Shown piece by piece: positions 9,111 through 55,214 of a DNA stretch of 64,000 nt. The position numbers and the translations under genes were made by a program. The stretch is from Candidatus Undinarchaeota archaeon (GTDB taxonomy: Archaea > Undinarchaeota > Undinarchaeia > Undinarchaeales > UBA543), in contig CAZMMZ010000007.1 in assembly GCA_964567575.1 (NCBI GenBank), positions 2,090 to 66,089 on the forward strand, in the 5' to 3' direction. Within the stretch, counting starts at the first letter, position 1; each line of letters starts with the position of its first letter. Below the pieces are notes generated by a model. The model did not search any database. It saw nothing but the letters and a program-made list of their open reading frames with translations, and was not told the DNA's origin.

Positions 9111-9508
9111 ATAATGTACCACGCTTTTGGAGAGAAATACCGCAACGGTATAATTTCATTGGAAATAAATGCAAAGGTTGCGATTGGATTAATTTCCCTC
9201 CAAGAAGTATTTGCAAAAAATGCGGATCATCAGAATTTGAGCGATTTGATTTGAAAGGAGAAGGTAAGGTTATTACCTACTCTGTAATTAGGGCGGCGCC
9301 TCCTGGTTTCGATAACTTAGTTCCTTATGTTGTTGCTATAATTTGTCTTAATGATGGTCCACGAATCACTTCGCAAATTGTAGATTGCGATCCAGAAGAA
9401 ATTGAAATAGGAAAAAAAGTTAAAGTATGCTTCAGAAAGATTGTTGAGGACGGAAAAGCTGGTGCAATTTCGTATGGATATAAATTCAGGTTATTAGATG
9501 AACAGTGA
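9107..9508 (+). CDS. DUF35 OB-fold/zinc-ribbon protein (thiolase-HMGCS scaffold subunit)
   Basis: 133 aa. CxxC..CxxC rubredoxin-like ribbon (CKGCDW..CKKCGS) followed by an OB fold. The position between thiolase and HMGR matches the known archaeal thiolase/HMGCS/DUF35 complex. Confidence 0.85.
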   Translation: MNNVPRFWREIPQRYNFIGNKCKGCDWINFPPRSICKKCGSSEFERFDLKGEGKVITYSVIRAAPPGFDNLVPYVVAIICLNDGPRITSQIVDCDPEEIEIGKKVKVCFRKIVEDGKAGAISYGYKFRLLDEQ

Positions 9509-10697
9509 ACCAATTTCTAATCAGGGCTTCGCGAGTAAAACGAGCGAATGCCCTCGGCCATCGTCCGCGGCCAGGCGGACTTCACGAGTTTCCAAATTTT
9601 ATGAGCGCTCAATTGAAGAGCGACTTGAATTTGTTAAAGAATTCGCAGATTTATCTGATGAAGAAATCAATTTATTGAAATCTAGCCCTGATCAGAACAC
9701 ATCTGACAAAATAATTGAGAATGTTATAGGGAATTATTCACTTCCAATTGGAATTGCAGTGAATTTCCAAATTAATGATAAAGATTATTTGATTCCAATG
9801 GTTTTAGAGGAGCCATCAGTTGTTGCAGCTGCTTCAAATGCTGCGAAACTCGCTCGAGAGTGTGGTGGGTTCACTACATCAGCTGATGATCCAGTGATGA
9901 TTGGGCAGATTCACGTTTTCGATAGCAAGCACCCAAATGTAGTGCAACACATTTTAGCAAAAAAAGAAGAGTTACTTTCTGTTGCAAATTCAAAAGATCC
10001 AATGATGATTGAACGCGGAGGTGGTGCAAAAGATTTGGATGTGAAAATTATTAATGATAATCATATTCGCATACATCTTTATGTTGATTGTCGCGATGCA
10101 ATGGGTGCAAATGCAGTAAATACCATGGTTGAAGCAATTGCGCCATTAATTACTGATGAAATCGGGGGGAAAGCAGTTCTTAAGATTATTTCTAATATGG
10201 CAGATCGTAGACTTGTACGTGCAGAATGCACATTCAGTAGAGATCTTCTTGGAGATGATACAATTGATCTTATTCACAAGGGTCAATTAGCTGCTGAAGC
10301 AGATTCTTATCGCGCAGCAACACATAACAAAGGAATTATGAATGCAATCTCAGCAATTTGCGTAGCAACTGGAAATGATTGGCGCGCAGTTGAGGCAGGG
10401 GCTCACGCTTTTGCCGGGCGCGGCGAAGGATATAATCCTCTTACAAAATATCAAATATTAAATCATGGTGATTTACTTGCAAGCATTGAGCTTCCACTTG
10501 CTGTTGCAACTGTTGGCGGCTCAACAAAACTTCCACAGGCGCGAGTGAATCAAAAAATTATTGGTGCGCAAACTTCACAAGAACTTGCTCAGGTAATGGC
10601 TGCAGCAGGATTGGCGCAAAACTTCGCAGCTCTGAAAGCAATTACAACAGAAGGAATACAGAAAGGGCATATGCGATTGCACGAGCGGAAAAACTAA
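9498..10697 (+). CDS. hmgA: HMG-CoA reductase, class II, with an unusual about 30-aa N-terminal leader encoded by a GC-rich repeat element
   Basis: ENVIGNYSLPIGIAVNF, LEEPSVVAAASNAAKLAR and DAMGANAVNTMVEAIAPLI are class II (P. mevalonii / S. aureus type) motifs. The only ATG/GTG/TTG upstream of the conserved FYERSIEERL region is ATG 9498, so the ORF reads through element copy C. Confidence 0.9.
   Translation: MNSEPISNQGFASKTSECPRPSSAARRTSRVSKFYERSIEERLEFVKEFADLSDEEINLLKSSPDQNTSDKIIENVIGNYSLPIGIAVNFQINDKDYLIPMVLEEPSVVAAASNAAKLARECGGFTTSADDPVMIGQIHVFDSKHPNVVQHILAKKEELLSVANSKDPMMIERGGGAKDLDVKIINDNHIRIHLYVDCRDAMGANAVNTMVEAIAPLITDEIGGKAVLKIISNMADRRLVRAECTFSRDLLGDDTIDLIHKGQLAAEADSYRAATHNKGIMNAISAICVATGNDWRAVEAGAHAFAGRGEGYNPLTKYQILNHGDLLASIELPLAVATVGGSTKLPQARVNQKIIGAQTSQELAQVMAAAGLAQNFAALKAITTEGIQKGHMRLHERKN
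9506..9580 (+). repeat. GC-rich two-hairpin element, copy C (inside the hmgA 5' end)
   Basis: TGAACCAATTTCTAATC / AGGGC-TTCGC..GCGAA-T-GCCCT / CGGCCATC / GTCCGC-GGCCAG-GCGGAC. The core is near-identical to copies A and B. Its first 3 nt are the DUF35 stop codon. Confidence 0.8.
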
Positions 10698-10731
10698 AAC
10701 TATTTATTCTCTTTAAACAAATCACTATCTA

Positions 10732-11211
10732 ATGTCAAAAGATAAAATAATTTGTGAAAAAAAGGGTATGTTTCTTAAATTAGCTAATTCTCCTTCTTCT
10801 TATTCACGAATCTCTGATTTTTCAAGAGAATACACGCAGCTCATACAAACAGCTCCGCATTTAAGAAATACGCAGGCAAGTCCTGTTGGCATTCAATGTT
10901 TTATTGAAAATAAAGAAAAAGAGATTCTTGCAGTTGCAGTGCTTGCAGTTGATAATGACGAGTGTGGGGTTGAAATATCTTATTTTTTTGTCAAATCCAA
11001 AGAAAGAAGAAAAGGTGTCGGCTACTTTTTCCTTGAGAATTTAGTAAAATACTGTCAACACCAATATTCAAAGTTAGCTGTAATTAGTATAACTGTTATT
11101 GAAGGTAGTGATTGGATAAAAGAAGGTGGTTCTATTCGTCTCTTTACTAAATTTGGTTTTCATCCTATTCTTACTATGCATAATTATTACGAGCTTGTTT
11201 TAAGAGATTAA
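10732..11211 (+). CDS. GNAT-family N-acetyltransferase
   Basis: 159 aa. The acetyl-CoA binding motif A-like segment ERRKGVGYFFLENLVKY follows a beta-strand (EISYFFVKSK). Confidence 0.6.
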   Translation: MSKDKIICEKKGMFLKLANSPSSYSRISDFSREYTQLIQTAPHLRNTQASPVGIQCFIENKEKEILAVAVLAVDNDECGVEISYFFVKSKERRKGVGYFFLENLVKYCQHQYSKLAVISITVIEGSDWIKEGGSIRLFTKFGFHPILTMHNYYELVLRD

Positions 11212-11261
11212 TTTTTAATATGAAATTGCATGAGCGCAAGAATTAGCCAAAAATATTAACA

Positions 11262-11368
11262 GTTATGCTGCGGCATAGTGGTGTGAGGTTAACCTCACAC
11301 TCTGAAAGGATTCAGAGGCCATCCGCCCTGCATTCGCTTCGCGAAGCAGGTCAATTGAAATTTGGTAA
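11262..11368 (-). ncRNA. Candidate structured RNA / divergent enlarged member (copy D) of the GC-rich hairpin family
   Basis: Minus-strand reading: TTACCAAATTTCAATTGA / CCTGC-TTCGC-GAA-GCGAA-T-GCAGG, then GCGG..CCGC enclosing two perfect hairpins (CTCTGA/TCAGAG; TGTGAGG-TTAA-CCTCACA). It shares the leader and the hairpin-1 architecture with copies A-C, with compensatory changes. It lies between convergent genes. The strand is inferred only from similarity to A-C. Confidence 0.45.
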
Positions 11369-11371
11369 TAG

Positions 11372-11830
11372 TTATTTGTAAATAAAATTCAATGTCTGAC
11401 TTGTTGATGCAGTTAATCCAGATGTTTCACCTGTGCAAGTTATATCATATCTCACGGTGTTTGGTTTCAAAGCTGCTTCATATTCTGTGTTAAAACTCAG
11501 AATCAAATAATTTTCCCCATTGTCTTGGCAAGTTATTGAACGCAGTTGCGCATTATTAATTCCAATTGATTTCTCTCCATAAAATTCTTCAATATCACAA
11601 TTAACACTCTCTTCTTGCAGTTTCATATACACACCAATAGAAATTCCAGAATATATTCCAGCAATGTTTTTAGTTAATTCAAATGAAGTTCCTGGAACCT
11701 TCTTGCAAAAAGCGCTATCAGTTGTCATATCGTTCTCGCTCGCATAATTCTTTAATACAAAAGTTTCTCCAAGACAACCACTGCTAAGTATAATAGCTAA
11801 CAATATCAAAGTGATAATTATTTTTTTCAT
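11372..11830 (-). CDS. Secreted/lipoprotein-like hypothetical protein
   Basis: 152 aa. N-terminal signal peptide ending in SSGC (lipobox-like). No recognised domain. Confidence 0.55.
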   Translation of the reverse strand: MKKIIITLILLAIILSSGCLGETFVLKNYASENDMTTDSAFCKKVPGTSFELTKNIAGIYSGISIGVYMKLQEESVNCDIEEFYGEKSIGINNAQLRSITCQDNGENYLILSFNTEYEAALKPNTVRYDITCTGETSGLTASTSQTLNFIYK

Positions 11831-11860
11831 AAAATCTATTTGGTTTGGTTAGTTAAATAT

Positions 11861-12730
11861 CTAACCAAGTAATGTGATTATAACAACCCCAGCTAACATC
11901 AAACCAGCGCCAATCAGATGCTCAGTAATATGATCTTCTTTGAAAATAAAATAAGCCAGAACAGTTGAGAGCAGGATACTTGTTCTTTTAACAGAAATCA
12001 TGTATGCAGCATCAACCATACTAATTGCTGTGAAATGCAAAACTGCAGTTAAAGCAAGCAGCACGCCCATAATAACCAATAGTCCTGGCTTTTTGAAAAG
12101 TTTTTTTATATTACTGGATTTTTTTATTGCAATCGGGAACATCAGTAATGCAAGGAGCGGAATATAAAAACCTGCAAAGAATAATGGGCTTGATGCTACT
12201 ACAGCTTTTTTCCCAAGAACCGATGTTATTGAAAAAATCACAGCTACCCCTAAAAGATACACTGATCCAATTTCATCTTTAATTGCTTTGAATGGGGCAA
12301 GAATTCCTTTCCGCCAGTTTTTGATATTAAGAATGTATGTCCCCAAAACAATAAGCAGAATCCCGCTTATCCCATACAACGTAAGGGTTTCTCCAAGAAT
12401 AACAAATCCAGTAAGAATCATGAAAGCCGGAGTGAACGCGAGAAACGGCACAGTCAAAGCAATTGGGGATTTGGAAAGCCCTTTCATAAAAAGAATTGCT
12501 GCAAGAATTTCAAGTGGAGTAAGAATAATTAACGAACTCCAAAAACCTGGTCCAAATTTTGGAATTCCTGAAATCAAAAGTATTGGCAAAAGCAAAGGTG
12601 CTGCAAAAAGCATTCTGCCCAGAACAACAATATATGGGTCATCTTCTTTTAGAACATGCTTTGCTATAATATCCATAATCCCAATGCAAATCGCACTTCC
12701 AAGTGAAAGCAAGAACCAAAGCGGTATCAT
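11861..12730 (-). CDS. EamA/DMT-family transporter
   Basis: 289 aa, about 10 TM segments arranged as two EamA-like halves. Confidence 0.7.
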   Translation of the reverse strand: MIPLWFLLSLGSAICIGIMDIIAKHVLKEDDPYIVVLGRMLFAAPLLLPILLISGIPKFGPGFWSSLIILTPLEILAAILFMKGLSKSPIALTVPFLAFTPAFMILTGFVILGETLTLYGISGILLIVLGTYILNIKNWRKGILAPFKAIKDEIGSVYLLGVAVIFSITSVLGKKAVVASSPLFFAGFYIPLLALLMFPIAIKKSSNIKKLFKKPGLLVIMGVLLALTAVLHFTAISMVDAAYMISVKRTSILLSTVLAYFIFKEDHITEHLIGAGLMLAGVVIITLLG

Positions 12731-13238
12731 AACAAACCACCTTTCAATAGCAGTATCAGTGTCATAGCAAATACAAACACATCAAAAAGCAATTCATCAA
12801 TATATACAGGATAAAGTAATTTCCGCACTTCGAAAGTGAATGGTGGCAAATTTCCATAGAATTTCAATTTTGTTAAGTTGTCAGAAAGTATGTGACTGTA
12901 ATAACCAGCATAAGCAATTGCTGCAATATCCACGCGCCACCAGAAAAGCGGAGCGAAAAGAACTGAAATTATTATAATACCTGGCCAATAATGCACAAAC
13001 CGACTTTTGTAATGCGGATCTTCTTTGTGATCTTTGTAATGATCATTAAAACACCGCTTCCACATATTTGTAACATGCAAATCTTTTGTTTTGAAAATGT
13101 GGCAAGCAAAGTGGTCAAGATCAATAAGCACCGCCAGTACGCCAGCAGCAAGAACATGCAATAGTGTAATGTCTTGAACAAAAAGAGATACAACTGCTCC
13201 TGCTAAGAATCCAAACAGCAAATGAGATCTTGGCATCA

Positions 13239-13239
<1 letters not shown>
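12727..13239 (-). CDS. Membrane protein, possibly DUF457/YdjM-type metal-dependent hydrolase
   Basis: 170 aa, multi-TM, starts MMPRSHLLFGFLAG with later His-rich segments. The assignment is tentative. Confidence 0.45.
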
Positions 13240-14644
<1,405 letters not shown>

Positions 14645-14698
14645 TTAGAACTAGAAATAATAACAGATTTATGTTCCTTATATATTTTTGTTAAAAAT

Positions 14699-14941
14699 TT
14701 ATTTTGTGTAGTATCCAATCACAAGCGCCATAAGGCCAATGACTAAATACAATCCGCCTGAAATCATATCTTTTGCTATGAAACCGACATACGCCAAGGC
14801 AAAAGCACCAACTGCATAGATTACAAGAAAGCGAACATCAAAGGTCTTTTTCTTTTTTGAAGAGACCATGTAGAATTGTACTAACCATGCAATTGTTATG
14901 AATCCAAGTCCAAGAATTGGTAGTGCTGTCATATTAATCAA
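14699..14941 (-). CDS. Small membrane protein (3 TM), unknown function
   Basis: 80-aa hydrophobic ORF in its own intergenic slot. Confidence 0.45.
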   Translation of the reverse strand: MINMTALPILGLGFITIAWLVQFYMVSSKKKKTFDVRFLVIYAVGAFALAYVGFIAKDMISGGLYLVIGLMALVIGYYTK

Positions 14942-14970
14942 TTTTTATATGTTATTTAGAAGTTTTAAAC

Positions 14971-15774
14971 CTATCTTTCGTCAATAACTTTCTTCTTTCC
15001 GTCCTTGTCAATAATTACAAATCTAACAACATATTCCTTTTTTCCTTTCAACTTTTTGTATATATATTCTGCATGTGTTTTCCCAGTTATTACTACTGTC
15101 TTATTATCTAAAACTTTCATCAGGTTTTTGTAAATTGGATAATTGCGTTTTCTCGCAGATTTTGCAATAATCAAAAGCGTCTTTTTTCTATTTTCTAAAT
15201 CAGCCCTTATTCTTTTCTGCTTTCTGATCCTCCTCCATCTAAAAACACAATCTATAATGGTGATCTTTTTTTCTTTTTCAATTCTTTCTCGAAAGTAGTC
15301 ATCAATCTCAAAAAGAAAGCGAATGAATGAACCTGATGTATCAATAAATTCAAAATCCCTCACACGACAAAGGCCGACTATTTCTAAAATAATATAAGTT
15401 TTTTTGATAGCTAAACCTCGCTCTTCTCTTCCCTGTCTTATTCTTTGAACTACCCCAGCAACATACTCTCTTATCTTTTCTTTCTCTTCTTCTGTTACTT
15501 TTATAAAATATAATTTGTGATTTTTAAACTGTTCCAAATTTTTAACAATAGAGTTATCAAAATACTCTTTTAATTCCTTTTGAAGTTTGTCTGGGTTCCA
15601 CCCGGCTGTTTTAATACTTTCACATATCTTTATCCCATGTTCTGTTCTTGGCATTTCAAGACACACTTTTTTGCCATTAAATTCTTTTATTTCTGTAACA
15701 TAGTGATTACTAACTTTAGTAAAGTGTTCCCCTTTGGGATGACTCTCTCCAATCAACAATAAGTGCTTTTTCAT
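14971..15774 (-). CDS. Hypothetical protein (Lys/Arg-rich)
   Basis: 267-aa ORF. N-terminal LLLIGESH faintly resembles ChaN/Tiki-type GxxH motifs, but this is unsupported beyond that. Confidence 0.5.
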   Translation of the reverse strand: MKKHLLLIGESHPKGEHFTKVSNHYVTEIKEFNGKKVCLEMPRTEHGIKICESIKTAGWNPDKLQKELKEYFDNSIVKNLEQFKNHKLYFIKVTEEEKEKIREYVAGVVQRIRQGREERGLAIKKTYIILEIVGLCRVRDFEFIDTSGSFIRFLFEIDDYFRERIEKEKKITIIDCVFRWRRIRKQKRIRADLENRKKTLLIIAKSARKRNYPIYKNLMKVLDNKTVVITGKTHAEYIYKKLKGKKEYVVRFVIIDKDGKKKVIDER

Positions 15775-15831
15775 TACTAGAAATAATGTCGCCCTTTACC
15801 TTTAAATATTACTTATTCAGTATAAAGAGCC

Positions 15832-20081: not shown

Positions 20082-20094
20082 TAATAAATTTCTT

Positions 20095-42263: not shown

Positions 42264-42908
42264 TTATTTATTGCAAACTTCACTTAGTTTTTCGTAAGAT
42301 CTGTTTATACTATTCAAAGCATCTACTAAATGTGGCATGTACTTGAATCCTGGTGTTGCTCCGAAATCTGAATAAATCAAAATGTAATGAAGTTTAAGCA
42401 ATCTTTCTGTTTCTATTTCTTCAACAGCTTGTTCTAATGTTACTGGTGCTTTTATTTTCAGTCCGCCGCCTTCTAATCCTTTTGACAGGCGCGCTAAAAG
42501 ATCATGAGTTTCAGCTAGTTTTAGAATGTCATGTATTTCCTCTTCAGAATATCCCATTTTTTCAACATGCTTCTGTGCGAGTTCTGCTGATTTGAATCTG
42601 TGGTTCGTATCCAAAGCATCAATTCCTTTTCCTATATCATGATAAAGTGTACCGCATCTCAAGATTTCTTTATCGTGTTCATTCAAATCTCTTGTATCCA
42701 TAACTGCTCCTTTATCCTTTACTTCACCAAGCAGTCCCATAACATTAAAAGTGTGATCAAGCGGGTCTATATCTTCATGCGGTTCAGATTGTTTAATCCC
42801 TTTCATTACAAGCATTTCTTCAGGAAGATTCTCTTTAATCTTATCAAAATTATTTTTGAAAATTAATTCATTACCTTTCAAAAGTTCTCGTAATATTTTG
42901 TAATCCAT
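42264..42908 (-). CDS. HD-domain phosphohydrolase
   Basis: LYHDIGKG motif. I place the start at ATG 42908 (MDYKILREL). The track's longer ORF (to 42974) starts at an ATG inside hairpin 1 of repeat copy A. Confidence 0.7.
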   Translation of the reverse strand: MDYKILRELLKGNELIFKNNFDKIKENLPEEMLVMKGIKQSEPHEDIDPLDHTFNVMGLLGEVKDKGAVMDTRDLNEHDKEILRCGTLYHDIGKGIDALDTNHRFKSAELAQKHVEKMGYSEEEIHDILKLAETHDLLARLSKGLEGGGLKIKAPVTLEQAVEEIETERLLKLHYILIYSDFGATPGFKYMPHLVDALNSINRSYEKLSEVCNK

Positions 42909-42932
42909 TTTGAAATTAGTAGCCCCGAGCAG
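42909..42932 (-). repeat. Second copy of the tRNA-Gln 3' end (tRNA nt 61-73 plus trailer)
   Basis: 42915-42932 is an exact 18-nt copy of 43033-43050 (attagtagccccgagcag). Similarity extends to 24 nt with 2 mismatches. Confidence 0.9.
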
Positions 42933-43011
42933 TTCCGAACGTCCGCCTTGCCGCGGACAATGGCATGAGGGCATTCGCCTACGGGCGAAGCCCTGGTTTG
43001 AAATTGGTTCA
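42933..43011 (-). repeat. GC-rich two-hairpin element, copy A (downstream of tRNA-Gln)
   Basis: Minus strand: TGAACCAATTTCAAACC / AGGGC-TTCGCC-CGTA-GGCGAA-T-GCCCT / CATGCCATT / GTCCGC-GGCAAG-GCGGAC / GTTCGGAA. Confidence 0.85.
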
Positions 43012-43037
43012 GATCTGTCTAAGTTATTTGTGATTAG

Positions 43038-43110
43038 TAGCCCCGAGCAGATTCGAACTGCTGTCCCAAGCTCCAGGGGCTCGGATGATTGACCACTACA
43101 CCACGGGGCT
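43038..43110 (-). tRNA. tRNA-Gln (CUG), no encoded CCA, apparent C at position 33
   Basis: Hand-folded: AGCCCCG-TG-GTGT..-CGAGC CCCTGGA GCTTG-GGAC-AGCAG TTCGAAT CTGCT-CGGGGCT-A. The acceptor and D region match archaeal tRNA-Gln. Confidence 0.8.
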
Positions 43111-45728: not shown

Positions 45729-45763
45729 AAAGATTTAAAACACAGTGTGCCTATTTAAATTTA

Positions 45764-46108: not shown

Positions 46109-46179
46109 ACAACTTGAACTATCTTATAATATATGAGGCACGGAATATTTGCAATAACGCACGCTAAGAAAAAAATAAT

Positions 46180-48108: not shown

Positions 48109-48136
48109 TATGATTCCTTCTTTTTATTCGTCATAT

Positions 48137-48532: not shown

Positions 48533-48587
48533 TGTAGACTATCCTAGTACTAAATAATATATAAATCTGGTGTCACGAAACACACAA

Positions 48588-48953
48588 CTATTTCCTTTCA
48601 ATAATATGCTTTACAAGTTCGTAAGGAATTCTAAAATCTATAGCTAACTGCTCCATGCTTTTGTGTCCCATGTCATACAGTTCCCTAATTTGTTTTTGCA
48701 AATAATCTGGAACATCATGTGAAATAACATCTCCTTGAATTGCTACATGAAAATTTTCTTGTAGATATTCTTTAACAGCTGGTTCAATTAGGGAATAAGC
48801 ATGCCCATCTATTACAAGCCGGTGAAGTTCTCTGCAACGTTTCACAAGTTCATGTGCGCCGTGCATTGAGATTTGATATTTCAAAGTAATAATCTGAGCA
48901 TCTGCTGGAACACGCCATAAATCCTCTTTGTATTCAAGAAGTATTTCTTTCAT
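48588..48953 (-). CDS. Hypothetical protein
   Basis: 121-aa ORF. No domain recognised. Confidence 0.5.
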   Translation of the reverse strand: MKEILLEYKEDLWRVPADAQIITLKYQISMHGAHELVKRCRELHRLVIDGHAYSLIEPAVKEYLQENFHVAIQGDVISHDVPDYLQKQIRELYDMGHKSMEQLAIDFRIPYELVKHIIERK

Positions 48954-48990
48954 AGCTACTGCTATTCTATACCTAATCTTAGTTTAAAAC

Positions 48991-49836
48991 TTATTTGATT
49001 CTCTCAAGCAATGTTTCCGCAGCAGCTGCAAGGTCTGTTTTCTCTTTCCCAACAAGTCCTTTCCCTAACTTCTCAACAATATTTGTGAGTTCCATTGGGA
49101 ACACAATCTTTGTTGCCCTTCCATTTGCCATATCTTTTAATGCTCTGATATAAAGATAATTTAAAGTAGGAGCTGTTAATTTTCCTGCAGCATCTTCAAT
49201 TGCATTGATTCTAATCTTTGTGGTTTCTGCTTCTTGAAGTTCTGCACGTTTGTATCGCTCTGCAATTTCCTCAGCTTGCATCGCATCAATCATTTCTTTT
49301 GGTGGTGTAACACTGATCAATTCGACATTGACAATCATAACGCCCCACTCAATTGCAAGTTTTTGAACATCTTCTCGAAGCTGATTATTAACTTGATCAA
49401 TTTTACCATAAAGGTCATCAATATCCATGCTACCGACTAAGTTACGAATACGACCTTTTACGTGCTCTTCAATAGCTTTTCTATAATCTTCTTCAACATA
49501 AAGTTCAGCTTTGACTGGATCGTCAACTCTGAGATAAATAATAGCATCAATTTTTAATTTAACTGCGTCTTTTGTGATGACTTCCTGTGGTGGAATATCA
49601 ATAGTTTCTGTACGCAAATCGTATTTTACAAAAGTTTCAATCACAGGGATAACGAATCGCCATCCAGGTTCTGCAACACGGTGGTATTTCCCGAAACGAT
49701 AAACAACGCCACGTTCATATTCCTTGAATTCGAACATAATTTTTCCAAGAATAAGATTCTTAGGAGACTTAACAATAAGCCCTAGACCCCCGAAGACGAG
49801 GATTACTGGAATTGCAACTAACATCCACATGACCAT
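48991..49836 (-). CDS. SPFH/band-7 (stomatin/prohibitin-like) membrane protein
   Basis: 281 aa. N-terminal TM, then VYRFGKYHRVAEPGWRFVIPVIE..TKDAVKLKIDAIIYLRV and a coiled-coil tail. Confidence 0.88.
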   Translation of the reverse strand: MVMWMLVAIPVILVFGGLGLIVKSPKNLILGKIMFEFKEYERGVVYRFGKYHRVAEPGWRFVIPVIETFVKYDLRTETIDIPPQEVITKDAVKLKIDAIIYLRVDDPVKAELYVEEDYRKAIEEHVKGRIRNLVGSMDIDDLYGKIDQVNNQLREDVQKLAIEWGVMIVNVELISVTPPKEMIDAMQAEEIAERYKRAELQEAETTKIRINAIEDAAGKLTAPTLNYLYIRALKDMANGRATKIVFPMELTNIVEKLGKGLVGKEKTDLAAAAETLLERIK

Positions 49837-49868
49837 TTGTTTTACCCTACATCAGTCAGTCTAAGTTT

Positions 49869-49879
49869 ACATATGTCAC
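49869..49879. promoter_or_regulatory. ACATATGTCAC motif, site 1
   Basis: 33-43 nt upstream of the SPFH start codon. Part of a 4-site intergenic motif family. Confidence 0.3.
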
Positions 49880-49934
49880 TGACCTTTGTCACTCCTTTCC
49901 AGTGGTATATTTGATATATAAGTGTTTTGCTACT

Positions 49935-50219
49935 CTACATCCCATCACATGCGTGATCCTCAGGCAACCGATGCTCATCACAATAAAGGCCTTTGCAGAA
50001 CTTGCATTTGAACGGCATTGTAACTTGTTTCCCACACATACCGCATATACCAGTAACGGGGGCTGCTTCCTTGCCACTTGGTTTTATTGGCTCAACAATA
50101 TGTGAAAGACTTGGATGTTTTGTAACTATTTTGAATGGATCTTTCTGGAAATAAATCACATAAGCTAGAACAGCAACTACTACTGCAATTCCTATAAAGA
50201 AAGCCAATCCCCAACTCAT
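49935..50219 (-). CDS. Membrane-anchored AN1-type zinc-finger protein
   Basis: 94 aa. N-terminal TM, then CGMCGKQVTMPFKCKFCKGLYCDEHRLPEDHAC (AN1 pattern). Confidence 0.75.
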   Translation of the reverse strand: MSWGLAFFIGIAVVVAVLAYVIYFQKDPFKIVTKHPSLSHIVEPIKPSGKEAAPVTGICGMCGKQVTMPFKCKFCKGLYCDEHRLPEDHACDGM

Positions 50220-50224
50220 TTAAA

Positions 50225-50986
50225 TCACTTCTTGAATACTTTAAAGAGGTTCTTAAACATATCTGTAAATGTTCCAGGCAGTTTTTGCGAGACATCTCTT
50301 ATTTTTGTGAGCCAAATACTTGGTCCAGTTCCTGTCCATTTTACTTCAATTGCATCAAGTTCTACTGAAGTAATATCAATACAAGAAACAGTTCCATCTG
50401 ATAATCCACACCCATTTGGTGAAGAAACAATCGCGCTTCCAGGTGGAAGAGTTAATTTATAATCAATTTCATTTACTGGTAAAACAGTTTCAGTAACTCC
50501 GGTAGTAACAATAGTTACTTTTGGATTTGAGCCAAGACCGTTTGGATTTACTGTGTAAACTTTTTGATTACTAGTTACAAGTCGTTCGCTCTGGAATTTC
50601 AAAATAAGTTTGTATCCTGTTGTGTTACTAGGTTCAAAAACAACAGCTTTTCTGAAGAAACTACCAACAGTTGAATCAATATCACTACTTGTTGCAGATG
50701 CATATGACGGGCCTTCAAACACTTTCATAACTCCAAGCCCATCTTCAGCTTCAACATTATAAATATCTGGATATGGAACTGTTACAACCATCTTATTCAT
50801 TTGACCAGCATATGCTGCTGCATCACACTCGAAAAAATAAGTCATCTTAGCTGTAGTTGTAGTTTCAGTTGCAATGGTTTCGATATCAAGTTTGTCAACT
50901 TCACAAAGATCAGCAGGTGATGCGCTAACAGTGCTGATTAATAGTATTGAAAAAATCGCAAATGCGATAAACGCCATACTTTTCAT
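50225..50986 (-). CDS. Secreted hypothetical protein
   Basis: 253 aa. Signal peptide (..ISTVSASPA), Thr/Val-rich and beta-rich. Confidence 0.55.
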   Translation of the reverse strand: MKSMAFIAFAIFSILLISTVSASPADLCEVDKLDIETIATETTTTAKMTYFFECDAAAYAGQMNKMVVTVPYPDIYNVEAEDGLGVMKVFEGPSYASATSSDIDSTVGSFFRKAVVFEPSNTTGYKLILKFQSERLVTSNQKVYTVNPNGLGSNPKVTIVTTGVTETVLPVNEIDYKLTLPPGSAIVSSPNGCGLSDGTVSCIDITSVELDAIEVKWTGTGPSIWLTKIRDVSQKLPGTFTDMFKNLFKVFKK

Positions 50987-51057
50987 GTTAAATTAAGTGT
51001 ATACTGGAGTATTTATATTTAGCCGATGTGTCAGAGTAAACTATTTAAGACTACCTA

Positions 51058-51068
51058 ACATATGTCAC
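51058..51068. promoter_or_regulatory. ACATATGTCAC motif, site 2
   Basis: 4-14 nt upstream of ATG 51072 and about 72 nt upstream of the divergent gene start at 50986. Confidence 0.3.
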
Positions 51069-51071
51069 GAC

Positions 51072-51302
51072 ATGGCAAAAAAGAAGTCCAAGATTTCGAA
51101 AGCAGAACGACGTATCATGTTCGCTGTTGAGGAGATTGTCCTCAGCTTCGTTGGTGCGCTTGTTATGGCTTTCGGAGTTATGGTGATAGCAAGCCCAGCT
51201 AACGGCTGGCTCGCAAATTTCGTTCTAGGCGTATTCATTGTCTGGCTCGGACTATTGCTATTCACTGTACCGTTAATCAGAAAAATAGAACAGCTTATGT
51301 AA
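51072..51302 (+). CDS. Small 2-TM membrane protein
   Basis: MAKKKSKISKAERR.. followed by two TM helices. The track start at 50997 is an unlikely upstream extension. Confidence 0.45.
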   Translation: MAKKKSKISKAERRIMFAVEEIVLSFVGALVMAFGVMVIASPANGWLANFVLGVFIVWLGLLLFTVPLIRKIEQLM

Positions 51303-51339
51303 GCATGTTTAACTGTTTCTCACTTAGGGTGGGGTCTCA

Positions 51340-51675
51340 ATGAAACCAGTAATTAATAGTAGTGAATATGAGTCAATTATAATTAACAGTAAAGAATTCA
51401 AGAATCATGTTGTTATCTATTCTTCTGGAGAAATTATTGAAGCTAATATTAGGCATGAGCTTCATCGCGATTTTGTTGAAAAATACTTGAAAGAAGATAT
51501 AGAACTTTTAATTATTGGCACTGGTACAAGTGGGTGTGTCAAAGTTTTTGAGGGTGTCAAACATTTGGCAGAAGAAAAAGGAATAGAATTAATTATAGAT
51601 GAAACTCCTGAAGCTTGTTACCAATTCAATAAATCTTCAAAGAGAGCTGTCGCTCTCATACACATAACTTGCTGA
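51340..51675 (+). CDS. Mth938-like domain protein (DUF498)
   Basis: 111 aa. LLIIGTGTSG .. IELIIDETPEACYQFN .. VALIH fits the Mth938/NDUFAF3 domain pattern. Confidence 0.65.
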   Translation: MKPVINSSEYESIIINSKEFKNHVVIYSSGEIIEANIRHELHRDFVEKYLKEDIELLIIGTGTSGCVKVFEGVKHLAEEKGIELIIDETPEACYQFNKSSKRAVALIHITC

Positions 51676-51676
51676 A

Positions 51677-53023
51677 TTATTCTTTCTTCACAAACTTTTC
51701 AATAAATTCATCAATGATTGTCTCGAGATTTGGTTCTCCTTTTTCTTCAAGTTCATAACCTACTCGCACAACTGGTTTGTTCACATTCAATAGTTTTCCA
51801 AGATCAATTGGAGTTCCACTCACAACAACATCAGCTTCAGTATTGTTAATTGCATCTTCTAATTCTTTCAACTGAGCATCGCTGTAACCCATCGCAGGAA
51901 TCATTTCACCAAGGTGTGGGAATTCCTCATAAACTTTCTTCAAATTCGCTCCACAATTTGGTCTTGGATCAACAATTGTTACATCCATATCTTTTACAGA
52001 AACTTTTCCAGCTCCGAAAGCCATATTCCCGTGAGTTAATGTTGGTCCATCTTCAACAATTATAACTCGCTTTCCTCTAACTGCTTCAGGATCTTCTAAT
52101 TTTACTGTAGAATTTGCATGAACAATTTTTGCATCAGGATTTATGTCTTTAATGTTCTTTTCAACAGTGGCGATGCCTTCTGGTTCTGCAGAGTCTTCTT
52201 TGTTTATAATAACATAATCTGCAAGTTTTGCATTTGTTTCTCCAGGGTAATAAGCAATTTCATGTCCTGGTCTAAGTGGATCAGCAACTACAAGGTGCAT
52301 GTCTGTTTGATAGAATGCAACTTCATTGTTCCCCCCATCCCATACAATAATGTCTGCTTCTTCCTCAGCTTTTTTAATGATGGTGCCATAATCAACACCA
52401 GAATAAATTACAAGACCGCGTTCAATATAAGGTTCGTATTCTTCGCGTTCTTCAATTGTAGATTTGTATTTTACAAGATCATCATAATCTGCAAAGCGCA
52501 TACATTCTTGTTGGACAAGATCGCCGTATGGCATTGGCTCTCTAATTGCAACAACTTTGTATCCGCGCTTCTTTAGAATCTCAACAACTTTTCTTGATGT
52601 CTGACTTTTTCCACAACCTGTTCGAACAGCATCAATTCCAATAACTGGTTTGTTAGATTTGATTTGGGTTTGCCGTGGACTTAGTAATTTGAATTCAGCA
52701 CCAGCAGCCTGCGCCCGTGCACACTTTCTCATAACTGTATTATAGGAAGAATCAGAATACGCCATTAAAACTTGATCAACTTGATTTTCTTTTACAAACT
52801 TTTCAAGATCTGCTTCTGGAATTGTTTGTATTCCATTTGGATAAAGATTGCCTGCAAGTTCAGGTGGATATTTTCGTATTTCTCCTTCAACAGTTCCAAG
52901 ATTCTGCTCTCCAGCCATTGTGAAAGCAAGAACGTCATAATTTTCGTTGTCACGATAATATGTGTTGAACGCGTGGTAATCAAACCCAGCGGCTCCAATA
53001 ATTACTACTTTTTTCTTTGCCAT
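51677..53023 (-). CDS. Predicted P-loop GTPase, COG2403 family
   Basis: 448 aa. KKVVIIGAAGFDYHAFNTYYRDNENYDVLAFT and the P-loop VRTGCGKSQTS. The family is recalled from archaeal homologues and its function is unknown. Confidence 0.6.
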   Translation of the reverse strand: MAKKKVVIIGAAGFDYHAFNTYYRDNENYDVLAFTMAGEQNLGTVEGEIRKYPPELAGNLYPNGIQTIPEADLEKFVKENQVDQVLMAYSDSSYNTVMRKCARAQAAGAEFKLLSPRQTQIKSNKPVIGIDAVRTGCGKSQTSRKVVEILKKRGYKVVAIREPMPYGDLVQQECMRFADYDDLVKYKSTIEEREEYEPYIERGLVIYSGVDYGTIIKKAEEEADIIVWDGGNNEVAFYQTDMHLVVADPLRPGHEIAYYPGETNAKLADYVIINKEDSAEPEGIATVEKNIKDINPDAKIVHANSTVKLEDPEAVRGKRVIIVEDGPTLTHGNMAFGAGKVSVKDMDVTIVDPRPNCGANLKKVYEEFPHLGEMIPAMGYSDAQLKELEDAINNTEADVVVSGTPIDLGKLLNVNKPVVRVGYELEEKGEPNLETIIDEFIEKFVKKE

Positions 53024-53137
53024 TTTATCCCTTAAATTGCATCTCTGTTTATTCTTTAAGTGTTTTTCGGGAAATGTGACATTTGTACAGTAAAATTATT
53101 TAAACAAGAACGAATTAGTGTTCCTGAGGGATTAAAA

Positions 53138-54067
53138 ATGGTAAGACACTTATTGAAAGTTAGCGATTTTTCTAAAGAAGAATGCCTTAGCATCATTGAC
53201 AAGTCAATTGAAATCAAGGCGAACATTTCATCGCATACTAGCGATTTAAAAGACAAAACTCTTTTGATGCTTTTTGAAAAACCATCGCTTCGAACAAGAA
53301 CTTCTTTTGAAGTTGGTATGACACAACTTGGTGGTCATGCGATTTTCTATTCAATTAAAGATTCACCTCTTGGAAAAAAAGAAAATATTGAAGACACTGC
53401 AGGATGCCTTTCAAGATATTGTGATATTATAATGGCTCGCGTTTTCAAGAAAGAAGATTTACAAAAACTTTCAGAGAATTCTACAATCCCTGTGATAAAT
53501 GCGCTTGATGATTTCGCACATCCTTGCCAGATTCTCGGAGACTTCCAAACAATCAAAGAACATAAAGGAGATTTGAATCCACGCAAGATGTCTTACTTCG
53601 GTGATTGTCACAACAATGTCACTTATGATTTAATGCGGATGTGTGCAATACTCGGTTGGGAAATGATGGTTGCTTGTCCGGAAGGAACTGAGTATGAACC
53701 AGAACAATCAGTGCTTGACGAAGTTGCAAAACTTTCTGAAGGAACTGGTGCAAAAATTTCTGTGACCCACGATGCACAAGAAGCTGCAAAAGATTCTGAT
53801 GTAATTTACACAGATTCTTGGATGAGTTATGGAATTCCTGAAGATGAGGAACAGAAACGCGTTGACACATTCAAACCTTATCAAGTTACAACTGAACTTT
53901 TGAATGTTGCAAAGCCGGATGTTATTTTCATGAACTGTTTGCCTGCTAAACGCGGATATGAGCAAACTGCTGAAGTTATTGACGGTGATAAAAGCATTGT
54001 CTTTGATGAAGCCGAAAATCGTTTGCACATCCAAAAATCTATAATGTTATTCCTATTAGAAAAATGA
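53138..54067 (+). CDS. argF: Ornithine carbamoyltransferase
   Basis: 309 aa from ATG 53138. FEKPSLRTRTSFE, HPCQILGD, DSWMSYG, NCLPAKRG. The track start at 53060 is an upstream extension. A putrescine carbamoyltransferase cannot be excluded. Confidence 0.85.
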   Translation: MVRHLLKVSDFSKEECLSIIDKSIEIKANISSHTSDLKDKTLLMLFEKPSLRTRTSFEVGMTQLGGHAIFYSIKDSPLGKKENIEDTAGCLSRYCDIIMARVFKKEDLQKLSENSTIPVINALDDFAHPCQILGDFQTIKEHKGDLNPRKMSYFGDCHNNVTYDLMRMCAILGWEMMVACPEGTEYEPEQSVLDEVAKLSEGTGAKISVTHDAQEAAKDSDVIYTDSWMSYGIPEDEEQKRVDTFKPYQVTTELLNVAKPDVIFMNCLPAKRGYEQTAEVIDGDKSIVFDEAENRLHIQKSIMLFLLEK

Positions 54068-54200
54068 CCTATCATCACTTCAAAGGAGACAACTTGTCCC
54101 GCTCTGAAAAAATTGAACAACTTGTTGTAACTCGGATTCTTATTCTAAATGACGGTGATTCAGTTGAAGTTAATGCAAATCTCGGATTTGTGAAAAAGAT

Positions 54201-54359
54201 TTAACCTGAAATTAATTTCACAACACCAACAACAATTAGATAAACTGCAATTAATGTTGTTAAAAGATTTGGCCAAATTAAAATTGTTACACCAACAGCT
54301 ATCATTAGAATAGCGCTGATTGTTTCACTTATTCCGAATCGTTTTAGGAAATTTACCAT
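54201..54359 (-). CDS. DUF3096-like small membrane protein
   Basis: My translation (52 aa): MVNFLKRFGISETISAILMIAVGVTILIWPNLLTTLIAVYLIVVGVVKLISG. The ILIWP..AVYLIVVG pattern is typical of DUF3096. Confidence 0.5.
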   Translation of the reverse strand: MVNFLKRFGISETISAILMIAVGVTILIWPNLLTTLIAVYLIVVGVVKLISG

Positions 54360-54412
54360 TGTTATCGTTTTTGATAGTTATCTGCCTATTAAAAATTTTT
54401 CCTTTTTGAGAG

Positions 54413-54489
54413 TGGCAGGCCCGCCGAGATTTGAACTCGGGACTGCGGCTCCGCAAGCCACCATGATATCCAAGCTACACCACGGGCCT
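54413..54489 (-). tRNA. tRNA-Arg (GCG), CCA encoded
   Basis: Hand-folded: AGGCCCG-TG-GTGT..-GTGGC TTGCGGA GCCGC-AGTC-CCGAG TTCAAAT CTCGG-CGGGCCT-G-CCA. Confidence 0.88.
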
Positions 54490-54534
54490 AATTTAGCTTT
54501 AGAATTCTAATTCTATGTCTTTATATTATTACCG

Positions 54535-55071
54535 TTATACTACCCTAAGCCAGTTTATGAAAAGGTATGGGAATTTGCTAAGTGCAAACCATGCGAGAGT
54601 CATGTAAAATGTTCCCATTATAATATACTTTATTGGATTTTCATGAAATGTGAAAAATCTGCTGATTTCCCTGAAAACTTCTGCTAATATAAATATGACA
54701 ATTCCCCAAACCAAGAAATTACTAAGTGTTAAAAAACTGGCAAAAATCGCTATAAAGATCATGTGAATCATATCCATCCCAACTAAAATCGGGTTGTAGA
54801 TTCCTATTTTTGCACTTAATATCTTTGATGGCCATGTTGATAATATTGCTACTAATATTGCTATCCACGGTCCATAAATTATTGCCAAGAATAATATCAA
54901 AATGCTGTGTACTTCAAGATTCACTGTGTGATATACTAAATTTGATCTGCTGAGAATACAAAGAACTATTGTCCAAATTAGCATCCTTGAAGCGCCTGGA
55001 AGAACAATTGGTGCGAGAACGAGAATTAAGACTAGCGACATCACTCCCATGAAATATTTTTTTATATCCAC
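54535..55071 (-). CDS. Multi-TM membrane protein (family member P3)
   Basis: 178 aa, 5-6 TM segments. VNLEVHS..IIYGP pattern. Confidence 0.55.
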   Translation of the reverse strand: MDIKKYFMGVMSLVLILVLAPIVLPGASRMLIWTIVLCILSRSNLVYHTVNLEVHSILILFLAIIYGPWIAILVAILSTWPSKILSAKIGIYNPILVGMDMIHMIFIAIFASFLTLSNFLVWGIVIFILAEVFREISRFFTFHENPIKYIIMGTFYMTLAWFALSKFPYLFINWLRVV

Positions 55072-55138
55072 ACTAATCCCCTCTCTTGTTTGCTATTACT
55101 ACATTTAGCCGTTTATTAATTTTTGTATTAAAGTAAAA

Positions 55139-55154
55139 AAGCACCACCGGAGAG
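55139..55154 (-). repeat. Second copy of the tRNA-Arg(CCU) 3' end (tRNA nt 61-73 plus trailer)
   Basis: A 16-nt exact copy of 55229-55244 (aagcaccaccggagag). The adjoining AT-rich 15-17 nt (55126-55140 vs 55214-55230) are also similar. Confidence 0.9.
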
Positions 55155-55214
55155 TTCCGAACGTCCGCCTGGCCGCGGACAATGGCCAAGGGCATTCGAC
55201 TTCGTCGAAGCCCT
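55155..55214 (-). repeat. GC-rich two-hairpin element, copy B (downstream of tRNA-Arg CCU)
   Basis: Minus strand: AGGGC-TTCGAC-GAA-GTCGAA-T-GCCCT / TGGCCATT / GTCCGC-GGCCAG-GCGGAC / GTTCGGAA. Confidence 0.85.

Follow-up and report, generated by a model that had tools for sequence, protein, structure and literature searches.

What are the four GC-rich, hairpin-rich segments (copies A to D, Table 1) in the 64,000-nt stretch of DNA analyzed here (the window), whose host is an Undinarchaeales archaeon (DPANN-related)? All four lie where a sequence-only reading had placed them. The hairpin 1 pattern GCTTCG..CGAATGC occurs four times in the window versus 0.01 expected from shuffles, and the hairpin 2 sequence GTCCGCGGCNAGGCGGAC three times, again versus 0.01 expected. 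A covariance model, the check proposed by that reading, was built on seven type 1 copies and run on the whole window; it recovered A, B, and C (E values of 1e-23 to 1e-25) and D (E = 0.005), with no other match. Further copies, also predicted, were found in related genomes and metagenomes, so that 12 are known in total, i.e., A to D and the copies in related loci. Among the sequences searched, with only about 270 kb of related sequence compared, the family is confined to low-GC Undinarchaeales contigs (UBA543, Tara, and other JGI contigs), and none of the viral contigs searched carries a copy. With a probability of roughly 0.72, we consider the segments to be copies of a lineage-specific family of small non-autonomous mobile elements (about 75–150 nt) of Undinarchaeales archaea. 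The features that define this family had been overlooked in the sequence-only reading: its link to tRNA genes, the duplication of tRNA 3' ends, and the variation in presence between genomes that shows mobility.

Table 1. Coordinates of copies A to D, their parts, and their target genes in the window
Feature	Position	Strand	Description
Copy C, 75-nt element	9506..9580	+	5' motif, hairpin 1, hairpin 2; no tail, no duplication
Copy C hairpin 1	9523-9554	+	
Copy C hairpin 2	9563-9580	+	
Copy D	11247..11368	-	covariance model E = 0.005; fold z = -4.8
Copy D 5' motif TTACCAAATTTCAATTGA	11351-11368	-	
Copy D hairpin 1	11327-11350	-	outer helix CCTGC/GCAGG
Copy D 3' module	11247-11326	-	three hairpins closed by a long-range helix, unlike other copies
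tRNA-Gln(ctg), intact	43037..43110	-	target gene of copy A; ARAGORN; Rfam tRNA, 49 bits
Direct repeat 1 of copy A, CTGCTCGGGGCTACTAAT	43033..43050	-	18 nt: tRNA positions 61-73 and 5 trailer bases
Variable left arm of copy A, CACAAATAACTTAGACAGATC	43012..43032	-	homologous to type 2 left arms (L088, L097)
Copy A core	42941..43011	-	5' motif, hairpin 1, linker, hairpin 2; covariance model
Copy A 5' motif TGAACCAATTTCAAACC	42995-43011	-	
Copy A hairpin 1	42968-42994	-	
Copy A linker	42959-42967	-	
Copy A hairpin 2	42941-42958	-	
Copy A T-loop-like tail GTTCGGAA	42933..42940	-	
Direct repeat 2 of copy A	42915..42932	-	then ancestral tRNA trailer TTCAAAAT, as at the L085 empty site
tRNA-Arg(cct), intact	55231..55306	-	target gene of copy B; ARAGORN, Rfam
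Direct repeat 1 of copy B, CTCTCCGGTGGTGCTT	55229..55244	-	16 nt: tRNA position 61 to 2 bases beyond ARAGORN gene end (55231)
Copy B insert	55155..55228	-	left arm, hairpin 1, linker, hairpin 2, tail; covariance model
Copy B short left arm CTTACATTTTTAAT	55215-55228	-	
Copy B hairpin 1	55189-55214	-	
Copy B hairpin 2	55163-55180	-	
Copy B tail GTTCGGAA	55155-55162	-	
Direct repeat 2 of copy B	55139..55154	-	then trailer homologous to the L097 empty-site trailer

Every copy carries the 5' motif (G)AACCAAYTTCA, followed by hairpin 1, in which the inner helix (TTCGC/GCGAA) is invariant, a single pyrimidine is bulged, and the outer helix is free. The 3' module is variable: hairpin 2 defines type 1 (A, B, and C), and other hairpins are found in type 2 and in copy D. 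Type 2 has the same 5' motif and hairpin 1 core as type 1 and different outer-helix sequences, and this divergence around a common core indicates real compensatory changes in hairpin 1. In an alignment of 11 copies, 88.6% of the hairpin 1 cells are paired and five pairs are changed on both sides (none of 500 shuffles was as good), these double changes coming from only three or four lineages, i.e., from few independent events; the twelfth copy (L097) adds another one, AAGCCCT/AGGGCTT. The earlier proposal of a true repeat family with helices held by double substitutions is therefore borne out, and more firmly with the added copies. The unpaired T, described as invariant, is a T in nine copies and a C in two type 2 copies. 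Folding relative to shuffled sequence gives z = -2.2 to -4.8 across the copies tested, and the hairpin mismatches point to no consistent strand (L007 and L088 have A.C when read on one strand, L099 when read on the opposite one). Hairpin 1 is most likely a recognition handle for the protein that moves the element. On its 5' side, the left arms across copies are nested truncations of one common sequence. On the 3' side, the 8-nt flank noted earlier does exist, as GTTCGGAA, only it is restricted to tRNA-linked copies, where the repeat of the tRNA 3' end follows. This T-loop-like tail, common to A, B, U1, and U2, looks element-borne since it is identical at three different tRNAs; the L007 tail, resembling a mutated T-loop of its own tRNA, is at odds with this.

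The genes for tRNA-Gln(ctg) and tRNA-Arg(cct) are closely followed on their 3' side by copies A and B, respectively, and behind each copy is a repeat of the same tRNA's 3' end, starting exactly from position 61. This arrangement recurs in six more tRNA-linked copies from related genomes, whose repeats measure 14–24 nt; all eight duplications begin at position 61 and end 0–10 nt beyond the tRNA, the duplicated 3' end being typically about 16 bases. The favored target is the T-loop/T-stem 3' strand boundary of the tRNA gene (position 60/61). Because insertion there is accompanied by duplication, the upstream repeat makes the tRNA whole again, and a 3' fragment of that tRNA stays behind the element. 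Each duplication matches its own local target, with five tRNAs used (Gln-ctg, Gln-ttg, Leu-taa, Arg-cct, and Ser-cga). Elements occupy the tRNA-Gln(ctg) site in the window, L088, and L092, with L085 and L091 showing the empty site; at tRNA-Arg(cct), the window has a type 1 copy and L101 a type 2 copy, and the site is empty in L097 (orthologous) and L095. At both sites, the trailer behind the second repeat matches that of the empty sites. Other, tolerated landing sites are an intergenic region, a tRNA intron, and the start of an HMG-CoA reductase gene. Duplications are also seen away from tRNA gene ends, at one intergenic site (L097, 25–30 nt) and one intron (L099). Overall, 14–30 bp of target is duplicated around 9 of the 12 copies, and no duplication was found at C, D, and L010, which may reflect two insertion modes or a separate history. 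All 12 copies are codirectional with their flanking genes. The 3' junction of the element is precise and the 5' side is variable, both in the duplication end and in the left-arm extent.

These sites bear on whether the copies are instead structured non-coding RNA genes or cis-acting RNA elements kept for function (processing, stability, or termination, in tRNA trailers or 3' UTRs), in which case the repeat of the tRNA 3' end would have its role in the RNA, e.g., in base-pairing to the gene or to the 5' strand of the tRNA. We regard this as unlikely. The compensatory changes around an invariant core with a bulge, the codirectionality with neighboring genes, the folds more stable than shuffled sequence, and the positions in tRNA trailers and 3' UTR-like places would all suit a functional RNA; however, the orthologous sites of close relatives are empty, one copy lies within coding sequence, the same tRNA holds two element types in different genomes, and duplications flank non-tRNA copies too. 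Rfam searched with the elements returned no family, in line with the earlier failure to recognize a known RNA. Nor does compensatory pairing, previously taken as the sign of selection on a folded nucleic acid, separate a functional RNA from mobile DNA with recognized or self-generated hairpins. The two readings can be compatible, as a mobile element can be transcribed.

An intact tRNA, an insert, and a partial tRNA 3' copy are also the classic archaeal integration layout, and for Caldiarchaeum, integration, tRNA fragments, and intron gain have been proposed as linked (PMC3293823). The inserts could then be attL/attR footprints of integrative elements (plasmids or viruses) that an integrase had inserted into tRNA genes and of which nearly everything was later deleted. 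This is the least probable of the alternatives: near-identical inserts of about 75 nt stand at five tRNAs and at non-tRNA sites, and their repeats match the local target only, so that a single attP core cannot match all of them. Besides, the repeats differ in length, it is implausible that the inserts all decayed independently to the same 75–150 nt, and no integrase gene or remnant was seen.

Copy C is an in-frame insertion after codon 2 of a class II HMG-CoA reductase (ORF 9498-10697), in real coding sequence. L103 (ATGAAAAC|TTCACGAG) and all homologues have the gene without interruption, and the window carries exactly 75 extra nt at this point; copy C is the only such case, and without duplication. 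Copy A, in contrast to an earlier remark on the reading phase through it, is intergenic, and the ORF beginning inside it is an artifact; the HD gene starts downstream of copy A in gene calls on identical contigs. Copy D sits between convergent genes, 3 nt past the stop of ORF 11372-11830, and comparison of its flanks gave no duplication. That excising exactly 9506-9580 would restore the ancestral reductase N terminus raises the idea of introns, with splicing at 60/61 by the archaeal endonuclease onto the second 3' exon copy and C being spliced from the reductase mRNA; the upstream tRNA would then be complete in appearance only. True introns at 60/61 and hairpin-1-like hairpins within two tRNA-Arg introns in L099 speak for it. 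We find it very improbable all the same: by inspection, none of the junctions of A, B, and C allows a bulge-helix-bulge; the 7+7-nt geometry of L099 (TTCG/AGAA, bulges AAC and TAT) is missing there; the upstream tRNA copy is already complete; and D, L010, and L097, being intergenic, cannot be introns.

Hairpin 1, which is imperfect and has a single extrahelical T, the defined flank of about 17 nt on its 5' side, and the duplication-free C, D, and L010 recall the ends of IS200/IS605 (PATE) or REP/RAYT single-stranded DNA elements, which would be moved by an HUH Y1 transposase encoded elsewhere. This lead of the sequence-only reading is improbable, since 9 of the 12 copies have duplications of 14–30 bp, which such elements do not produce, the left hairpin is unrelated to the right one, and no constant tetra- or pentanucleotide precedes the left end. 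The suggested search for TnpA, TnpB, or RAYT found none near the copies, in the window or in related loci. IS200/IS605, PATEs, and REP/BIME are like the family in imperfect hairpins, an extrahelical base, and defined flanks; their lack of duplication, fixed short target, and related hairpins are all three absent from most copies. For each of the IS200/IS605, classic MITE, att-site, and intron classes, the family fails one or more membership tests.

No transposase, integrase, reverse transcriptase, or Cas1 domain was found among 30 previously unannotated window ORFs or in the gene calls of flanking loci. With no enzyme encoded in the element or nearby, it would have to be mobilized in trans, by an enzyme encoded away from it. 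The precise 3' end, the variable 5' extent, the variable duplications, and the constant transcription-wise orientation seem to be best fitted by a target-primed step in which an RNA or another single-stranded intermediate is copied. In a rough split within the mobile-element explanation, SINE-like target-primed insertion is tentatively placed first, a casposase/Cas1-like integrase taking the T-arm palindrome as a "leader" is slightly more doubtful, polymerase template switching at hairpins is more doubtful again, and some other mechanism takes the remainder. SINE/non-LTR retroposons (target-primed reverse transcription) share with the family a precise 3' junction with variable 5' extent, variable target duplications (roughly 7–30 bp), and small non-coding structured units moved in trans, whereas the family is without an A-rich tail or known reverse transcriptase partner and has three duplication-free copies. 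We know of no member of this class in archaea.

Casposons and mini-casposons (Cas1-type casposase, e.g., Aciduliprofundum boonei) likewise insert at tRNA 3' ends with a duplication of about 15 bp; to our knowledge, they have not been reported from Undinarchaeota. Tandem re-insertion would be expected for both. However, the casposon duplication has a fixed length of 14–15 bp, of which only 5 bp falls within the tRNA, as opposed to 14–30 bp from position 61 here, which counts against a casposase, and casposons have terminal inverted repeats and Cas1 and PolB genes, neither of which the family has; no casposase was seen. For casposons, the adjacent T-psi-C arm serves as the positioning "leader" (PMC5137440), and the same arm, which lies next to the site in our family, would take this role there too.

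Prokaryotic MITEs and Rickettsia palindromic elements are also small, non-autonomous, structured, intergenic repeats of one lineage, and the latter are found in frame within protein-coding genes as copy C is. MITEs differ in their terminal inverted repeats and short fixed duplications set by a parent IS; the family has subterminal complementarity only, long variable duplications, no known parent IS, and no sequence relation to either group. Neither the SINE nor the MITE model suits the family fully, as an A-rich 3' tail and terminal inverted repeats are both lacking. Mobile archaeal tRNA introns (intron transposition in Thermoproteales) and the disruption of tRNA genes by integrating elements, as in the Caldiarchaeum model (PMC3293823), are similar in placing related sequences at several tRNA genes and tRNA fragments beside intact genes, at a common hot spot. 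Unlike these introns, the copies in the window are external to the functional tRNA and have no bulge-helix-bulge motif, and the Caldiarchaeum element differs from the copies in being 1.8 kb and recombinase-encoding (PMC3293823). Position 60/61, used by the family insertions, is itself an intron site in the sister Undinarchaeales lineage L099, where true introns occupy it in tRNA-Arg(tcg) and tRNA-Arg(cct), and the hairpin-1-like hairpins lie inside the introns of tRNA-Arg(tct) and tRNA-Arg(tcg).

We put at roughly 70 to 80% the probability that the four GC-rich hairpin elements of the window (copies A, B, C and D) belong to a lineage-specific, structured, non-autonomous mobile DNA that inserts at the T-arm junction of tRNA genes, the gene being rebuilt by a long target duplication. 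All four segments were located where the sequence-only reading had placed them and, at a window GC content of about 37%, they are the main GC-rich islands once tRNA genes and some coding regions are set aside. The window has four occurrences of the hairpin 1 core GCTTCG..CGAATGC and three of the hairpin 2 sequence GTCCGCGGCNAGGCGGAC, against 0.01 expected of each from shuffles. Briefly, a covariance model was trained on seven type-1 copies (hairpin 1 followed by hairpin 2, as in A, B and C) and used to scan the window and about 200 kb of related DNA (271 kb in all). This search, proposed in the sequence-only reading, recovers A, B and C at E values of 1e-23 to 1e-25 and D at E = 0.005, and it adds no further type-1 copy anywhere in the 271 kb. 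In an Rfam scan of the whole window at gathering scores tRNAs pass and no other family does, and permissive Rfam scans over A, C and D give chance-level matches only (E > 0.05); the view that the elements are not a recognised RNA therefore holds. C/D box, H/ACA, K-turn and tRNA-like folds were also rejected, their motifs being absent on inspection. The tRNA-Gln(ctg) gene next to copy A was missed in the whole-window gathering scan and scores 49 bits when a short region is scanned alone, an apparent effect of filtering.

A 5' motif, (G)AACCAAYTTCA, and hairpin 1 are common to all copies. In hairpin 1 the inner helix (TTCGC/GCGAA) is invariant, a single base is bulged on the 3' side, and a C-G pair lies next to it; the single bulge had been described as an invariant T, and it is kept, but as a pyrimidine across copies. 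Towards its apex the inner helix is variable (CC/GG, AC/GT or longer), and the outer helix is AGGGC/GCCCT in type 1, CCTGC/GCAGG in copy D, and AAGCCCC/GGGGCTT and AAGCCCT/AGGGCTT in type 2, the copies with other 3' hairpins. Over 11 copies, 88.6% of the hairpin 1 cells are paired and five pairs are changed on both sides, and no shuffle and no slid register approaches the observed pairing. The compensatory changes reported earlier thus do maintain pairing, and they trace to three or four lineages; they do not tell an RNA fold from a DNA fold. The few mismatches are G.T on one strand in the related contigs L007 and L088 and on the opposite strand in L099, an inconsistency that picks no strand. 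Mimicry of the host tRNA was rejected for the type-2 outer helix AAGCCCC/GGGGCTT, which equals acceptor pairs 1-6 of tRNA-Gln, because the same helix is found at tRNA-Arg(cct) of the related contig L101 and is thus not fitted to its host tRNA. Beyond hairpin 1, type 1 has a linker of 8-9 nt and hairpin 2; type 2 has two other hairpins and a second AACCAATTCAAAAC motif, which pairs back to GTTGAATTG near the left end; and copy D has three hairpins closed by a long-range helix. The 3' end is much better defined than the left: type 1 ends in GCGGAC, with the tail (the bases between hairpin 2 and the second flanking repeat) present or absent, and type 2 ends in ..CAGCGGAG, with extra bases in L088 and L101. 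The left arm, which runs from the first repeat to the 5' motif, extends from 33 nt down to none and is homologous in A, L088 and L097 (..TAACT..CARACAR..GAACC).

The linkage to tRNA genes and the duplicated tRNA 3' ends, both present at A and B, had been left out of the sequence-only reading. Copy A lies 21 nt 3' of a first repeat that ends tRNA-Gln(ctg), copy B lies 14 nt 3' of one that ends tRNA-Arg(cct), and in both hairpin 2 is followed by the tail GTTCGGAA and then by a second copy of the 3' end of the adjacent tRNA, in direct orientation (CTGCTCGGGGCTACTAAT at A, CTCTCCGGTGGTGCTT at B). Six tRNA-linked copies were found in relatives, i.e., at tRNA-Gln(ttg) and tRNA-Leu(taa) of UBA543, at tRNA-Ser(cga) of L007, at tRNA-Gln(ctg) of L088 and of L092, and at tRNA-Arg(cct) of L101. 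The repeat starts at position 61, the first base of the T-stem 3' strand, in all eight tRNA-linked copies and ends 0-10 nt past the tRNA in every one of them, with lengths of 14, 16, 16, 16, 16, 18, 21 and 24 nt. Duplications are present at nine of 12 copies overall, and all 12 are parallel to their flanking genes. The T-loop/T-stem junction is the preferred insertion site, and most insertions duplicate their target. Since any duplication reaching the tRNA end keeps the gene intact, the position-61 start is not a survival filter and reflects target recognition. The repeats differ at every site, each matching its own local target, whereas an integrase att core travels with its element and is the same at each insertion; an att-site footprint was rejected on this ground.

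Empty sites, the same tRNA genes without the element, were found in relatives: tRNA-Gln(ctg) lacks the insert in L091 and in L085, the closest relative (DtdA 80% identical), and tRNA-Arg(cct) lacks it in L097 and L095. The sequence past the second repeat is homologous to the empty-site trailer (TTTTTTACTTTAATACAAAAATTAATAAA in the window, TTTTTATTTTCCACTATACAAAACTTAATAAA in L097), indicating that the insert sits between two copies of one ancestral sequence. One tRNA also carries differing element types by genome, the window having type 1 and L101, L088 and L092 having type 2. A single ancient orthologous insertion at A, L088 and L092 was rejected, as their shared "spacer" recurs at the intergenic L097 copy and so belongs to the element's left arm. 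All nine same-population contigs carry copy A, and no strain-level empty site for it was found among them. The intergenic L097 copy, of type 2, has a flanking repeat of about 27 nt with 2-3 mismatches, and a reversed element within a tRNA intron of L099 has one of about 18-20 nt; copy D and the L010 copy, both between convergent genes, have none.

Copy C lies in the gene for HMG-CoA reductase. The homologues of this enzyme all begin MK(S/T)SRVSGFYK, and the window protein has 25 additional residues between codon 2 and SRVS. The DNA of the related locus L103 is uninterrupted here (ATGAAAAC followed directly by TTCACGAG), and that of the window reads ATGAACAG, the 75 nt of copy C and TTCACGAG, with no duplication. 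Copy C is open in the reading frame used by the reductase and no alternative start codon occurs from the element to the conserved SRVS motif, so that copy C is most likely translated as part of the reductase. The elements inflate ORF calls; the deposited reductase P0001 (399 aa; NCBI among its sources) holds 25 element-encoded residues. In reductase homologues of related genomes (P0003, P0004, P0005 and the L103 locus), in-frame inserts of another kind, with many G, A, P and R residues, are found at differing positions; the one insert read as DNA showed no hairpin 1 motif.

Coordinates of the elements, tRNA genes and neighbouring features in the window and in related loci
Sequence	Position	Feature	Observation
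Window	9107-9508	DUF35 gene	Separate from the reductase gene, overlapping it
Window	9498-10697	HMG-CoA reductase gene	
Window	9506-9580	Copy C	
Window	42264-42974 (noted at 42909-42974)	Mechanical ORF	Begins inside element A; in gene calls of identical contigs the HD-domain gene (214 aa) has its start further downstream
Window	43037-43110	tRNA-Gln(ctg)	
Window	54413-61572	tRNA-Pro and four genes for tRNA-Arg (gcg, cct, tcg, tct)	Clustered about the gene for arginyl-tRNA synthetase
Window	55317-57059	Arginyl-tRNA synthetase gene	
L085	10126-10180	GC-rich tandem repeat, GGGGCGCA x3	In the D-aminoacyl-tRNA deacylase gene; missing from the window orthologue
L099	9330-9885, 11770-12070	Four tRNA-Arg genes	D-loop, canonical and T-loop (60/61) introns
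L099	9523-9654	Two exact 66-nt tandem units	Upstream of tRNA-Arg(tcg)
L103	about 6845-6905	Insert, read as DNA	No hairpin 1 motif seen
L104	3408-4916	DUF35 (OB-fold/zinc-ribbon) and HMG-CoA reductase genes	Fused, one 502-aa ORF

The window genes include an archaeal mevalonate cluster (HMG-CoA synthase, thiolase, DUF35 protein and class II HMG-CoA reductase) and other housekeeping genes, and the reductase is identical to an NCBI protein of 'Candidatus Undinarchaeales archaeon'. In exact-pattern scans the element is confined to low-GC archaeal contigs, i.e., UBA543 (two copies), Tara contigs identical to UBA543, the JGI contigs L007 and L010, and a contig identical to the window; the remaining matches are GC-rich bacterial coding sequences. 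A viral origin was rejected, two scans of viral contigs giving only chance matches in GC-rich phages. The element is mentioned neither in the genome paper on Undinarchaeota nor in a 2026 survey of archaeal insertion sequences, and our other literature searches found nothing equivalent described.

The element fits no established prokaryotic class, and its insertion signature is closest to that of retroposons. Terminal inverted repeats of the MITE type are absent, an AT-rich variable left arm standing opposite GCGGAC or the tail, and complementarity is subterminal only (CYGAAC/GTTCGG or GTTGAATTG/CAATTCAA). MITEs have a short duplication of fixed length, whereas the values here are 0, 14, 16, 16, 16, 16, 18, 21, 24 and about 27 nt; a classic MITE was rejected on these two points. 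Neither the 64 kb of the window nor about 200 kb of related loci showed a parent insertion sequence with the same ends. The likeness to IS200/IS605 or REP ends raised in the sequence-only reading did not survive the comparison either: IS200/IS605-PATE/REP elements make no target duplication, insert 3' of a constant tetra- or pentanucleotide and have related hairpins at both ends, whereas here nine of the 12 copies are duplicated, the left flanks share no constant sequence, and hairpins 1 and 2 are unrelated. No HUH domain was found among the window ORFs. In A. boonei, casposon insertion at the end of tRNA-Pro duplicates 15 bp and requires the adjacent T-psi-C-arm sequence (PMC5137440). Casposons duplicate 14-15 bp beside a recognised upstream sequence (PMC5137440); in the tRNA-linked copies here the duplication starts at a point fixed relative to the T-arm (8/8), but its length varies from 14 to 24 nt. 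With no terminal inverted repeats, no Cas1 domain in the window ORFs or the gene tables of the loci, and a variable duplication length, a casposon was rejected. With SINE-like retroposons the elements share a precise 3' end, variable 5' truncation, which could also be mimicked by later deletions, and target duplications of variable length; such retroposons have an RNA intermediate, a partner reverse transcriptase and an A-rich or otherwise defined 3' tail, and no A-rich tail is present here. To our knowledge, retroposons are not known in archaea. In-frame insertion into genes is tolerated here, as it is for Rickettsia palindromic elements.

The element encodes nothing, and no transposase, integrase, reverse transcriptase or Cas1 was found in 30 unannotated window ORFs or among the genes tabulated for the flanking loci. 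We infer the enzymology; three candidate mechanisms each agree with part of the data, and each of them, taken singly, we consider less likely than not. SINE-like target-primed copying starting at the element's 3' end would account for how precise the 3' junction is, for the nesting of the 5' ends, for duplications of varying length and for an orientation parallel to transcription, but it requires a reverse transcriptase. A casposase or Cas1-like integrase would have its precedent in A. boonei, at tRNA-Pro with the T-psi-C-arm requirement (PMC5137440), although casposons have a fixed duplication length and terminal inverted repeats. Polymerase template switching at stable hairpins would make a dedicated enzyme unnecessary and would agree with the frequent likeness of the 5-9 nt ahead of the second repeat to the target's own loop (GTTCGGAA vs GTTCRAAY, GGGGCAAGT vs GGTTCAAAT, and TTATG vs TTATA); the tail may be element-borne or target-derived. 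The tail was also considered as a mark of reverse transcription, with A57/A58 changed to G where the T-loop is modified; A, B, U1, U2 and L088 agree with this whereas L007 and L101 do not, and the idea was dropped because an element-borne tail is the simpler account. DGR-like adenine mutagenesis between the repeat copies was rejected, the changes not being adenine-specific, and a guide RNA was set aside (a scaffold with the tRNA 3' end as its 3' guide and the T-loop as adjacent motif), given the duplications at non-tRNA sites and no associated nuclease gene. We regard as quite improbable a new archaeal transposition system in which hairpin 1 would be the handle, stem-loops and chiefly the tRNA T-arm would be the targets, and target-primed or T-arm-guided integration would produce duplications of 14-30 bp. 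Its cut at exactly position 60/61 would give rise to the tRNA 3' fragments of this clade and, once the first repeat was lost, would seed the T-loop introns; if true, it would explain concretely how DPANN-like archaea gain non-canonical tRNA introns and how their tRNA genes become fragmented.

Position 60/61 is both the junction of the element and an intron site in this clade. L099 (arginyl-tRNA synthetase 66% identical) has four tRNA-Arg genes undetected by ARAGORN because of their introns; the intron-rich tRNA genes of this sister lineage thus escape standard tRNA finders. An intron of about 110 nt splits its tRNA-Arg(tcg) precisely where the T-loop meets the T-stem 3' strand, with a junction near the canonical bulge-helix-bulge (TTCG/AGAA, bulges AAC and TAT), and one of 22 nt occupies the same 60/61 place in its tRNA-Arg(cct). 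A reversed, hairpin-1-like hairpin lies within the large T-loop intron and within the canonical intron of tRNA-Arg(tct), where it is followed by a linker and a 6-bp hairpin, as in type 1; the match of the covariance model to these reversed elements is weak (E = 0.23). By inspection, no bulge-helix-bulge (4-bp helix, two 3-nt bulges) is present at the A, B and C junctions; the window copies were rejected as introns, as none can be drawn and the tRNA lying upstream is already complete. If the first repeat were lost, the insertion would become a T-loop insert, which makes the element a candidate source of non-canonical introns. A model for intron gain in Caldiarchaeum is comparable in spirit (PMC3293823).

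Undinarchaeales have tiny genomes with single-copy tRNA genes. The mobile element proposed here would aim at such single-copy genes and persist by rebuilding the tRNA via the long target duplication. Its cut site being the tRNA intron position of an intron-rich sister lineage, it opens a testable path by which insertion could lead to non-canonical introns and tRNA fragments, the origin of which is a long-standing question of archaeal tRNA evolution.

In L099, tRNA-Arg(cct) and tRNA-Arg(gcg) have nearly identical D-loop introns, which suggests intron transposition. Each 66-nt unit upstream of the L099 tRNA-Arg(tcg) consists of the first 12 nt of that gene and a 54-nt hairpin element with a reversed AACCAATTTCAAGG motif, a 5'-end counterpart of the 3'-end duplications in the window. 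In the window's genome the 3' CCA is encoded in some tRNA genes and not in others.
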